64,000 bases of DNA from Neisseriales bacterium. Its GTDB lineage: Bacteria; Pseudomonadota; Gammaproteobacteria; Burkholderiales; Q3-R57-64. The position numbers were made by a program, and so were the translations under genes. Positions 48,697 to 51,600 of the stretch are shown here, one piece after another (the stretch's first letter is position 1; the number at the start of each line of letters is the position of its first letter). The notes beneath the pieces were generated by a model, which saw only the letters and a list, made by a program, of their open reading frames with translations, made no database searches and was not told the DNA's origin. The DNA is taken from assembly GCA_016699915.1 (NCBI GenBank), contig CP064990.1:448671-512670 (forward strand). The letters are read 5' to 3'.

Positions 48697-51600
48697 GTGA
48701 TCCGTCATTTTACACGGAATTGCCTATTAGTTTGGTTATGCTTTGCTCAGCCAACGGTGGCGCTTAGCTCAGAATTGTCTTGGGTTGGTAATATTTCAGA
48801 GGGCGGCTGGGAGAATGAGATCGACTGGCGTGGTCGCCCTGAAGAGTTGACATCGCATCTTCGACTGCAAAGCACTTATCACTTCAGTACCGATAGCGAT
48901 GTTGAGTTGCGAGCCGGTGCTCAGTGGGTTGATGGCAAGATCTCGTTGGATGAGCTATCCATCGCAGCACATAACCAATTTGGACAGTTGCGTTATGGGC
49001 GACTTCCTTCATTACTTAGTGAACCAGTAGCGTATCAAACACCCACCCAACCAACCACCCAACGACGCACTGCGCCTTTTAACCGCGTGCCTATCTTCTT
49101 TGATACCCTTGAAAGTTTGTCTCACCAAACTATTGCTTATGATTCGCCCCAGTTTGGTGGCTTTCGAATTAGTTTAGCCAGTGGTCAGTCTGACCGATAT
49201 GACAAACCCTTTCGCCAACTTAATGGGAATCAAGCAGTAGTTGAAAGTGAGCGAAGTTTTACGATGGACTTCGTGAATAAACCACGCCAATTCGCGGTAA
49301 AAAGTGTACAAATTAGCTTTCAACCCAATGACCTTTTTTTGGCACGTTATACCCTAGCCCAATATGCCGATCATGTCCCGGTGTTCAAAGAGCGCTCCCA
49401 AACTATGCAGTGGGACAATGACCATACCACCACCATGAAACATGCTGGCGATGTTACTGGTTTTGAACCGGGCTGGATTCAACGCTACGAAGGGGGATTT
49501 TACCAACGTAACATAGCGTTGATGGCGAGTGCTCAGTTTGCTCATTTAAGTGGTTTGCCTTTTGATTTTGATTCGCCACACAGTGCGCCTTTTAACCAAA
49601 GCTATCATGATAGCCGACAAATTGGGCTTTCAGGGGCAATTCGACTGTCGCCACAAGTGACTATTCGTGCTGGCTACGTGACAGGTAAAAGTCATTGGGT
49701 CAACGGTTTGGCTCTATCGACTACCACATCATCGCAAACTTCAAGACGATTTCAAACCATTGATGCCTATCATCCCAATGAAACGGTCGTGATGGATCGA
49801 GGCACGGCTGAATTAGAAGCATTTGTCTGCGCGGAACTGAATCCTGATGGTACCTGTCAACGCTATTATGTACCACAAGACGCGAAAACCCTGGTGACTC
49901 AAATGCTAAGCGATGTTACTGCCGCCGTGGATAAAATTGAACGCTATTTCTTGCACATCGATTTGGCATCACCGACATTATTATTAGACCATCAAGCCGA
50001 AGTTTTAGGTTTGTTAGCCCAAAAAACCCGCACTATTCATTGTAGAAATGATTCAACGTTGGCAGCTTGCCAAACGGGTGTAAAAAATATTTTGCGTGCT
50101 GCTGCCGAGATCCACCATATCAAAACTGATTTTGATCAAGCTATGGATCGTTTAGAACGAGCTCATAACAAGATTCAACATATCTGGCATCAAGTGCAAC
50201 GAGCTATCCCACATCCTGAGACCGAAACAGACTATCTCAAAGAGCTGTATGAATTTGTTGAAAAAGCAGCGGCCTATAGCACTCAACAATTTGCTATGCT
50301 TCATACCTGGGAAGACACCATGGAGCAAGTTGCCCACTATGCAACCGACGAAGCGCAGTCGGTTGCATGTCATGTTCAAGAAGAAGACAGACAGTTTGAT
50401 CAAGACGTACAAGCTGTAGGGGTGGCCAATCGAACTGTCTGTACCAGAGCTCCAGTGCCTTGGGGAGACTATGTTTTTGATGGTGCTCAGGTGATTGATC
50501 CGACAAACCGCAAGTTGTGTGGGACATTTAATGACGACCGTACCTGCAAAACCTACATTACCCTAAAACAAGCGCTTGATGAACTGGATTCGCTAGGAGG
50601 GCACCCTCAAGGCTATTTACAACAGGCTGACCATACAGTGGGTAATATTGTTCAAACCACAGATAATATAACTGGGTATGCTTTGGATCAAGCCTATACA
50701 AACTATTTATACCTGCGAAATACTGATCAAAAAAAAGAAGCAGCACTTGCTATATGGAATGAAGCCTATGAACTAGTTGGGCATTTTCAAAATGTTCAAG
50801 ACTGGTTTACAAGCCTCCAAAGTGTGCAACAGCAAGCGGACTTACTATGGCAGCAAATACAAGCGTTAATTCCTGATCCCACGCAAGCTATACAATCCGA
50901 GCGAACGCACTATGATCGTGCTCAATCAGTGGTGCAAACGATTGCACGTTACGTCAATAGCGTATCGGGCAAGGGGTCATTTTTGAATGACGCTCGACAC
51001 CAGACTATTCCAGACGTTACTTTAATTGTTGGACAAGCCAAGGATTATGCATCCCGTGTGGGCTGTCTACTTAATGCGGAAGATTACTACGCCAAAGCGG
51101 ATAGGATGCGACTAGATATGGTTTGCCAGAACCATACTTTATTTCATTACTTAAGAGAAGCGAAAGAAACTTATGCGCGAGCCCTCCAAAAAAACCCTAA
51201 AGAGATGGATACTGATAGACCCAATCCTGTTTGGGAAAAGGAAGCGTGGCTGGCACTAAAAAACATCAAGGACAACCTGACCGGGCAGATCCAGACGGTA
51301 CAACTCGCGTCATCGTATTGCGCCATCAAACCTTCATCCATGGCATGTCAACAACAAGCTGCTAAAGTGGGCGTAGCACTCCAAGATGCTAACCGAGCTA
51401 GGCAAGAGCTAGATCGGGCCGATCGACGTTGGGCAAGCGTGAGCACAACCATTCATCGAGTCTTAGAGGAGGCCATCAGTGCTATACCCGATGCAGAGCG
51501 GGCGCCTCTCTATAATGAAGATACCTTGAACAAAATTGGAGCGTTTCATGATCAAGCATCCCAGTTTCAATTGCATGTACATGGTTTAAGGGATTCAGCG

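Follow-up and report, generated by a model that had tools for sequence, protein, structure and literature searches.

A giant gene with poly-G frame switches whose two ends resemble a single porin barrel interrupted by about 3,100 residues

How might an outer-membrane β-barrel begin at the N-terminus of a giant open reading frame (ORF) and be completed only thousands of nucleotides downstream? The question is raised by a 64,000-nucleotide stretch of contig CP064990.1 from a Neisseriales bacterium (assembly GCA_016699915.1); this whole stretch is referred to here as the window, and positions are numbered within it. A first-pass annotation had proposed that the giant ORF starting at 48697 opens with the front part of a porin-type barrel, which would be interrupted by a giant insertion in one loop or turn and completed about 9.3 kb further on. 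The measured distance from the end of the N-terminal barrel segment (the N part, ending at 49719) to the start of the C-terminal one (the C part, starting at 59095) is 9.4 kb, and when the two segments are joined they match one porin profile colinearly. The interpretation of the ends of the gene as a split porin is supported at the level of sequence profiles, and not by structure. We consider it probable that the two ends come from, and would together build, a single porin-type barrel, on whichever side of the outer membrane the insert lies.

As sequenced, the locus is divided among three ORFs on the plus strand, which carries every feature of the giant gene described below. ORF1 (48697..56619; 2,640 amino acids, aa) starts with GTG, with AGGAA 9 nt 5' of it. 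ORF2 (56684..58648; 654 aa) lies in a different frame, and ORF3 (58651..59340; 229 aa) is back in the frame of ORF1; both have a nominal TTG start. The frame changes from ORF1 to ORF2 at a run of ten Gs (G10; 56580..56589) and from ORF2 to ORF3 at a run of twelve (G12; 58622..58633). These two tracts are the sole G/C homopolymers of at least 7 nt in the window, where the next longest is 6. The ORF2 frame is stop-free from 56573, just 5' of G10, and the ORF3 frame from 58621, while the out-of-frame readings reach a stop within 30 nt past G10 and within 15 nt past G12. The first junction is fused by G9 or G12 and the second by G13 or G10; with one G deleted from the first tract and one inserted in the second, the ORF runs for 3,547 codons without a stop. 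A coding repeat of about 600 nt in the ORF2 frame begins at 56663, 21 nt 5' of the nominal TTG of ORF2, and the second copy has Leu at the corresponding place, so this TTG is an internal Leu codon. Read in this way, 48697-59340 is a single gene of about 3,547 codons rather than three.

The first-pass annotation described the beginning of ORF1 as a Sec signal peptide followed by about 330 residues with amphipathic β periodicity and three porin-like motifs, and each of these features was recovered. Residues 1-24 (MIRHFTRNCLLVWLCFAQPTVALS; 48697..48768) have the n/h/c layout of a Sec-type signal peptide, with predicted cleavage at VALS/SE, and are 50% conserved in the metagenomic relative P0003. 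The period-2 amphipathicity of aa 24-340 exceeds that of 200 shuffled sequences (z=3.7), and the three motifs lie at aa 96-105, 146-165 and 309-330. The N part itself (aa 25-341; 48769..49719) comprises the front strands, a long loop resembling porin loop L3, and amphipathic strands up to SHWVNGLALS. Both motifs that flank L3 in the Pfam family Porin_4, FGxLxxGR and YxSPxFxGF, are present, as NQFGQLRYGRL and TIAYDSPQFGGF, and HMMER aligns both with the consensus of the family and with PorB. NQFGQLRYGRL (48973..49005) falls on the β4-turn-β5 motif (consensus yGtvtlGRqy; PorB FGKLRVGRL), and TIAYDSPQFGGFRISLA (49129..49179) falls on the β6-turn-β7 hallmark motif (consensus vkYtSPefaGlqfe; PorB VRYDSPEFAGF). 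The last clear hairpin of the N part, QIGLSGAIRLS-PQ-VTIRAGYVTGKS (49618..49692), is by eye the best match to β12-T6-β13 of PorB and the Burkholderiaceae porins.

Against Porin_4 (PF13609), whose gathering score is 27 bits, aa 70-170 align with positions 71-169 of the 310-position profile at E 0.005-0.007. The score is 16.6 bits when aa 1-388 are used as the query and 17.0 bits with aa 24-340, both below the gathering score, and the whole 2,640-aa ORF is unlisted in the Porin_4 scan. The proposal that the N part is the front of a porin-type barrel is therefore upheld with a sub-threshold match. A hidden Markov model (HMM) built from 10 betaproteobacterial porins gave the N part 12.8 bits (best of 20 shuffles, 1.0), and one built from 130 such porins gave 8.5 bits. 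These models place NQFGQLRYGRL, TIAYDSPQFGGF and DYQQWIIGLDYDFTSQ on β4-5, β6-7 and β14-T7 of the family. When fragments were mapped individually on the 130-porin HMM, positive scores were obtained only for β4-5, β6-7 and β14-15, and no position was found for the second half of the N part. Residues 186-341 contain up to nine further amphipathic stretches after the anchored β1-β7; beyond about seven strands the N part appears to be β-like and too diverged to align. The presence of the front half of a porin in the N part is well supported. The N part is also 56.6% identical to the metagenomic relative P0002, compared with 26.6% for the insert, which argues for a stronger constraint on the barrel part than on the insert.

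Structure prediction, which the first-pass annotation had suggested as a check, is usable for about the first seven strands and carries no confidence for the remainder of the N part. AlphaFold2 run on the single sequence gave a predicted local distance difference test score (pLDDT) of 30. With a multiple sequence alignment of the two relatives and 48 porins, β strands were predicted at aa 24-107 (pLDDT 68-81) and the YDSPQF hairpin at about aa 144-163 (66-77); these are the only regions above 65, and the mean is 48.8. Outer-membrane barrels and porins rank top in a Foldseek search with this model (Vibrio cholerae OmpT, VDAC, OmpF, PorB), with no match at E<=1e-3. Comparison of the family alignment with 10 porins by hhalign was uninformative, the alignment having an effective number of sequences of about 1.

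The N part lacks an aromatic-terminated closing strand of its own, as had been noted before, and such a strand is found at the other end of the gene. The C part, the last 81 aa plus stop codon (59095..59340), consists of a possible strand, ITFTPNQPVEVY, followed by three clear amphipathic strands, QQWIIGLDYDF, IKLNCSLGYLA and KTFTAGIDLMIRF, the last of which ends in the terminal Phe of a β-signal; its period-2 amphipathicity gives z=4.0 against shuffles. The signal peptide and this aromatic-ended C-terminal strand, both features of Porin_4 proteins, share one polypeptide only after frame repair. Alone, the C part gave no match to Pfam Porin_4 in lengths of 81, 100 or 140 aa. The ORF3 tail alone aligns with positions 287-323 of the 344-position NCBIfam PorB profile at E 0.06, and with residues 258-306 of the PorB structure 4AUI in the PDB at E 0.27.

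Joining the two parts, a comparison that the first-pass annotation had itself put forward, changes this picture. The spliced sequence (aa 24-340 or 341 plus the last 81 aa) reaches 28.4 bits against Porin_4 (E 1.9e-6), covering profile positions 71-169 and 176-305 of 310, or 26.6 bits when the junction is shifted by one residue, compared with 17.0 bits for the N part alone. The gain depends on the identity of the C part: N parts joined to shuffled C parts gave 16.9 and 16.3 bits, to the reversed C part 18.9 bits, to two other 81-aa pieces of the insert 16.2 bits each, and to the last strand only 18.2 bits. In other words, the C part adds about 10 specific bits, colinear with and on top of the end of the N part. 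Removal of the last N-part hairpin from the spliced construct reduces the score to 22.5 bits, a cost of 4-6 bits, which indicates that this hairpin and the C part fall on separate, successive stretches of the profile. A junction mini-construct of only 125 residues (aa 298-341 plus the last 81 aa) scores 16.3 bits over profile positions 213-305 of 310 and is nearly gapless, with 87 residues set against 93 profile positions; aa 298-341 alone give no match to Pfam Porin_4. The spliced sequence also matches PorB 4AUI in two colinear stretches (E 0.0066). This is the pattern expected if a single porin sequence has been interrupted, rather than if two unrelated β-rich pieces happen to flank the insert. 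By similarity, both ends would belong with Porin_4; formal membership fails for the natural polypeptide (17 versus 27 bits) and is borderline for the spliced one. The proposal of a barrel split by a giant insertion has thus gained profile-level support from the splice (28.4/26.6 bits), and neither outcome that the first-pass annotation had named as fatal to it was obtained.

Between the two parts lie about 3,100 residues which, as the first-pass annotation had stated, are helical or of low complexity: E, K, Q, R and D make up 30-42% of the sequence after the N part, helical periodicity is dominant and β-type periodicity is unenriched, and the insert has no match in Pfam, NCBIfam, PHROGs or PDB. 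The first portion (aa 342-1062; 49720..51882) is helical and contains seven close Cys pairs (378/387, 449/458, 558/582, 608/617, 790/810, 875/884 and 977/1005, spaced by 9-28 residues) and an unpaired Cys at aa 1062; the first six pairs are invariant in P0002. After aa 1062 there follow 2,449 residues without cysteine. The second portion (51883..56579) is helical or of low complexity, and from aa 1063 to about aa 3200 the sequence is rich in E, K, Q, S, T and P, with helical periodicity and internal repeat modules. Within ORF1, 53914-54008 repeats at 54925-55019, and 54387-54517 at 54681-54811. The third portion, in the ORF2 frame (56590..58324), is coiled-coil-like and is built of diverged coding repeats of about 600 nt with 69-88% identity (56663-57307, 56992-57824 and 57175-58100), the first copy starting at 56663. 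AT skew is +0.16 to +0.32 across the giant gene (positions 50000-60000) and about +/-0.1 elsewhere, owing to A-rich Glu, Lys and Gln codons on the sense strand; a 217-aa antisense ORF rich in Ser, Cys and Phe (57523-58176) is a mirror artefact of the same codons.

The end of the insert has a different character, which the first-pass annotation did not describe; nor did it recognize that the ORFs are separated only by frameshifts at the two poly-G tracts. Two hydrophobic, transmembrane-like segments rich in Gly and Ala, ALGAGGAGVGLVALGFAIGYVASLLII (58325..58405) and AGGGLVLGLLGLLGAGAAAFMMM (58634..58701), have summed Hessa free energies (dG) of -1.2 and -0.8 kcal/mol, respectively. They flank an acidic, Thr-rich linker without K or R (58406..58621), composed of D5, then (GEETTTEDTT)x5, then a T/P-rich tail. 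The five-fold peptide is encoded by a 30-bp tandem repeat (58416-58558; 4.8 copies, 99% identical), and the near-perfection of the copies suggests recent expansion, with copy-number variation possible. The DNA of the second segment partly duplicates that of the first: at the segment starts, 58337-58360 and 58627-58650 are 79% identical and encode GGxGxGLV. It looks as though a unit of hydrophobic segment and acidic tail has been duplicated, with the second G tract at the start of the second copy. A further acidic stretch and a linker of about 130 aa without known relatives (58702..59094) precede the C part. Direct repeats or mobile-element scars were sought at the insert boundaries, and none were found.

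Relatives of the gene are extremely few. A full HMMER search of 1.84 billion representative proteins returned only the protein of the window itself and two metagenomic fragments, P0002 and P0003, both from one JGI metagenome (3300037010). One related locus, L001 (Ga0373635_0094882), can be aligned with aa 176-1176 without a change of frame (29% identity, E 1e-103). The other, L092 (Ga0373635_0150700, 20-373), matches the first 72 aa only (50% identity) and continues into unrelated sequence and then a ThrE gene. The boundary motif GKSHWxNGxAL and the first Cys motif that follows it are common to the gene and its relative, so the architecture was in place before the two organisms diverged. A word-indexed search with the N part found no match, and with the spliced sequence it found ORF3 itself only; the N-part alignment, searched against 185,579 species genomes and JGI metagenome contigs, found no relative, and a tblastn search of plasmids with the spliced chimera returned nothing relevant.

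We suggest that the product would be a Sec-exported outer-membrane protein whose barrel anchor, of Porin_4 type, is encoded in two pieces. Residues 25-341 would form the front of the barrel, with about seven strands, including L3 and the YDSPxFxGF hairpin, secure and six to nine more predicted; the last 80 or so residues would contribute the closing strands, three or possibly four in number, together with the C-terminal Phe signal for the barrel assembly machinery (BAM). Assembly would start at this signal, and the barrel would close only with both pieces. Between them would lie the disulfide-paired helical region, the fibre-like, Cys-free stretch of about 2,100 residues, and the two hydrophobic segments flanking the acidic repeat. 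The insert would exit from the loop after the β12-T6-β13-like hairpin, the equivalent of L7, and would be exposed on the cell exterior as a giant passenger held at its two ends, on the principle of the Hop (type Vf) adhesins applied to a large porin barrel. Closure of the barrel and the side on which the insert emerges are what we infer here; a phase-variable split-porin barrel with its passenger in a surface loop stands, in our judgement, at about an even chance. The fuller version, in which a porin-type barrel of 16-18 strands serves as a two-ended anchor, and probably also as the route of export, for a passenger of about 3,100 residues in one of its loops under two poly-G switches, we advance only tentatively.

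Two readings of the sequence place the insert in a surface loop. Counting from the secure periplasmic turn GG after YDSPQF, each turn slot holds only 2-3 residues (PRQ, DH, RN, PQ), whereas the loop slots, apart from one (PND), span 21, 20 and 24 residues. In our own reading, this alternation of short and long connections puts the insert in a loop slot, with the VTIRAGYVTGKS strand running outward; the C part would then add three strands, for a total of 16 or 18. In addition, RLSPQVTIRAGYVTGKS matches the T6-β13 consensus of the Burkholderiaceae (QATPALLLGxGYxYTKA) and PorB VTPRVSYAHGFKGS better than does FTPNQPVEVYDG of the C part, which favors L7 as the site of the insert. A few closely spaced cysteines followed by none is a known pattern in passengers that cross the outer membrane. 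The poly-G tracts, the 99%-identical 30-bp repeat and the fast-evolving low-complexity sequence are, by analogy, typical of surface antigens, for which poly-G tracts and repeats have precedents (PMC2192423, PMC3639595). We place the surface loop somewhat ahead of a periplasmic location because of the close Cys pairs, the phase-variable, repeat-rich character of the gene, the acidic K/R-free linker and the Hop precedent.

Several observations weigh against this interpretation. The porin scores are all weak, with the natural N part 10 bits under the Pfam threshold; the spliced Porin_4 score lies just at the threshold of 27 and depends on the junction (26.6 versus 28.4 bits). The C part is without any relative that could show its conservation, and the pLDDT falls below 50 over the L3 region and aa 189-345. 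The N part may have 13, 15 or 16 strands, and a MAFFT global alignment gives a register that differs from that of Pfam. The HMMER alignment of ORF3 with PorB opens at FTP~VTP, the start of β13, which would put the junction in the periplasmic turn T6, and HWVNGLALS, which is conserved, may represent one more strand running inward. For the two hydrophobic segments, arrest in the inner membrane would be the expectation, at odds with a surface loop. In the genome as sequenced, neither G tract is in frame. The 1.84 billion representative proteins and the 185,579 species genomes together yielded only one related organism, whose loci look damaged in ways compatible with decay: L001 carries an in-frame TAA (2282-2284) within otherwise continuous homology, and L092 is a mere 72-aa remnant. 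This damage could reflect decay, paralogues or noise in a low-coverage assembly.

The alternative that survives best also accepts one gene and one split porin, and differs in having the insert leave a periplasmic turn, the T6 equivalent, so that the protein spans both membranes as a tether or scaffold. The N part would then end with HWVNGLALS as a downward strand, the C part would give four strands starting from FTPNQPVEVY, the roughly 2,900 residues after the N part would be periplasmic, and the hydrophobic segments would form an inner-membrane helical hairpin. Speaking for it are an ORF3-PorB alignment that begins with the first β13 residues, a junction near profile position 255 in the near-gapless Pfam match, the amphipathic SHWxNGxAL, invariant in both homologues, and hydrophobic segments with a negative summed dG. 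Biogenesis would also be simpler, with nothing crossing the outer membrane, and disulfide pairs suit a periplasmic domain. The better β13 homologue by eye is, however, VTIRAGYVTGKS, which has V, T, R, Y and G in common with PorB VTPRVSYAHGFKGS and also shares P, G, Y and K with the Burkholderiaceae consensus, whereas FTPNQPVEVY has two prolines and no strong peak of β moment. The loop between the hydrophobic segments is K/R-free with a net charge of about -35, which contradicts the positive-inside rule if it is cytoplasmic; phase variation and repeats resembling variable-number tandem repeats would be unusual for a purely internal structure; and we know of no single polypeptide that combines an outer-membrane β-barrel with inner-membrane helices. 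We regard this topology as possible, though rather unlikely.

Less likely still is a relic, dead or dying: an ancestral porin gene would have been disrupted by fusing to, or taking up, a giant foreign coding segment and would now be a pseudogene from which no barrel is made. The two frameshifts in the sequenced allele, the in-frame TAA in L001, the 72 aa left in L092, the extreme rarity of the family and the eroded porin similarity (17 bits) would all fit such a history. Yet 10.6 kb are disrupted only at the two G tracts, the 3,547 codons being otherwise stop-free, and neither the terminal Phe nor the amphipathic strands have been lost. A level of conservation in the N part double that of the insert, together with invariant Cys pairs, argues for purifying selection in both lineages, and the boundary GKSHWxNGxAL followed by the Cys motif, shared with the relative, makes the architecture older than the split.

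We also considered whether the N part might be a complete barrel, of 16 strands if HWVNGLALS is counted, in an arrangement resembling inverse autotransporters with a giant C-terminal passenger, the porin-like C terminus being a separate element such as a small second anchor or a remnant. Its 317 residues would suffice for a porin of 16 strands, a count by eye gives as many as 16 amphipathic segments, and in the MAFFT global alignment the N part ends on β14-β15 of the Burkholderiaceae porins. Against this, the N part alone covers only profile positions 71-169, and position 305 of 310 is reached only with the C part spliced on; the last N hairpin and the C part add score and do not compete; no aromatic-terminated strand closes the N part; and the canonical terminal Phe signal at the C terminus would otherwise be without a role. 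The Autotransporter and IAT_beta profiles gave nothing on the ORFs in the Pfam scan, the best value being 13.9 bits (E 0.046; gathering score 26) for Autotransporter on the junction mini-construct. A complete N-terminal barrel therefore seems quite improbable. Three independently expressed genes (a secreted ORF1, a tail-anchored ORF2 and an ORF3 with its own hydrophobic leader, the G tracts being incidental) would be the literal reading of the sequence, and the hydrophobic stretch that opens ORF3 could mimic a signal peptide, but this is the least credible reading by far, given that the TTG of ORF2 is an internal Leu of a repeat begun upstream, both downstream frames are open back to the G tracts, neither TTG is preceded by a convincing ribosome-binding site (by eye), the ORF3 leader is without a positive n-region, and the chance of the only two long G runs in the window hitting both frame junctions is negligible.

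The two G tracts are long homopolymers inside the coding sequence, a one-unit change in either flips the frame, and both stand at frame switches; long G tracts at the frame junctions of a surface-protein gene are a classical signature of contingency loci (PMC2192423, PMC3639595). We infer phase variation at the two tracts: slipped-strand mispairing at G10 and G12 would turn expression on or off, the allele sequenced here (G10/G12) would be OFF, yielding only the 2,640-aa product without the closing strands, and the ON state would combine G9 or G12 in the first tract with G13 or G10 in the second. If the passenger is indeed anchored at both ends, the two switches may, tentatively, specify three nested products, of 2,640 aa with the barrel unclosed, of about 3,310 aa, ending past the first hydrophobic segment and the acidic repeat, and of 3,547 aa with the barrel closed. 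The off-frame tract lengths may represent real phase variation, miscalled homopolymer lengths or recent inactivation. The window contains 52 A/T runs of 7-9 nt, and no ORF is visibly broken at any of them, so homopolymers of this length are not a general source of error in the assembly. Sequencing error was rejected as a sufficient explanation; the tracts themselves and the single-gene reading survive even if their lengths were miscalled.

How does this gene compare with known systems? Its ends share with the general porins of Porin_4 (Neisseria PorB 4AUI and those of the Burkholderiaceae; PF13609) the Sec signal peptide and Phe-ended C-terminal strand, the motifs FGxLxxGR (β4-5), YDSPxFxGF (β6-7) and YxQxxxGxDYxF-turn (β14-T7), a spliced sequence that matches PorB and scores at about the Porin_4 gathering value (26.6-28.4 versus 27 bits), and a host whose closest PurA proteins are from Betaproteobacteria, the lineage in which Porin_4 dominates. 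Unlike those porins, the barrel sequence here is interrupted by about 3,100 residues and may have 18 strands rather than 16.

In autotransporters of types Va and Ve, a contiguous 12-strand barrel lies at one terminus and the passenger has a free end. The present protein resembles them in Sec export, BAM assembly, a single self-anchoring chain and a very long, fibrous, repeat-rich passenger that is poor in cysteines, the few present being closely paired; it differs in that both ends of the insert are tied to barrel strands. A reading of ORF3 as a trimeric autotransporter was discarded, there being no YadA_anchor match in Pfam.

The closest architecture is that of the Helicobacter Hop adhesins. 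An interrupted-barrel class that includes them, type Vf, was reportedly proposed by Coppens et al. in 2018. BabA, SabA and HopQ carry their surface domain between strands 1 and 2 of a barrel with 8 strands (PMC6555100, PMC9289746), and Hop-family genes are often phase-variable through simple repeats (PMC10564699, oipA). In both systems a large non-barrel domain, amounting to an extended loop, divides the barrel sequence, and neither terminus carries a passenger. The differences are substantial: the Hop insert is a few hundred residues and the one here, at about 3,100, is about ten-fold larger; the split here falls after 12 or more strands, near the C terminus of a porin-type barrel of 16-18 strands, with at least seven secure strands before the insert and three to four after it; and the phylum differs, with no sequence relation. 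The Pfam scans of the ORFs and constructs returned no Hop or HP_OMP family (E<=10), and a literature search on split or interrupted porins found nothing beyond the Hop case. The G tracts recall the poly-G contingency loci of Neisseria (the lgt genes and the PorA promoter) and other pathogens, where a one-unit change in a long G tract likewise flips the frame of a surface-protein gene, but here two tracts lie 2 kb apart in one gene and both must be in frame; the comparison rests on one sequence.

Current models of barrel folding have strands added sequentially by BAM from the C-terminal signal. A barrel that closes around a 3,100-residue insert would stretch these models, and with them secretion of the type V kind, since BAM would need to retain three or four C-terminal strands until more than 3,000 residues had been dealt with, and only then would the other strands, twelve or more, be added. 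If the proposed arrangement is correct, the interrupted-barrel principle is not limited to Helicobacter and can arise in ordinary porins, with a passenger ten times larger than in any described type Vf protein, in another phylum and on another barrel family. The gene would then be a natural test of how much cargo a barrel loop or turn can carry, of relevance to surface-display engineering, and its two G tracts would offer a built-in ON/OFF genetic handle. Should the periplasmic topology prove correct instead, this would be the first known chain with an outer-membrane β-barrel and inner-membrane helices.

The host appears to be an unsampled lineage with betaproteobacterial affinities, because its PurA is at most 65% identical to that of any of the 185,579 species genomes and the best matches are all from Betaproteobacteria. 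The lineage has about 41% GC and the 10.6-kb gene 41-46%, and the apparent confinement of the family to this lineage may tie it to a particular lifestyle. Downstream of the gene, a perfect 15-nt inverted repeat with a 3-nt loop (59449..59481) separates it from a convergent HD-domain gene. The repeat is probably a transcription terminator shared by the two convergent genes, although it was not picked up by a terminator scan based on T runs; consensus scans for promoters and terminators stayed at or below shuffle expectation. The HD-domain gene is followed, on the same convergent side, by an MFS transporter gene, ispF, ispD and an RNase T-like gene. Upstream of the giant gene lie hisS, a YfgM-like gene, bamB, der and purA, and further upstream tig, clpX, lon, ppiD, clpB and a cluster (786-11668) that resembles purine/xanthine catabolism, encoding a 1,031-aa Fer4/pyridine-nucleotide oxidoreductase, a molybdopterin hydroxylase (968 aa), two amidohydrolases and a xanthine/uracil permease.

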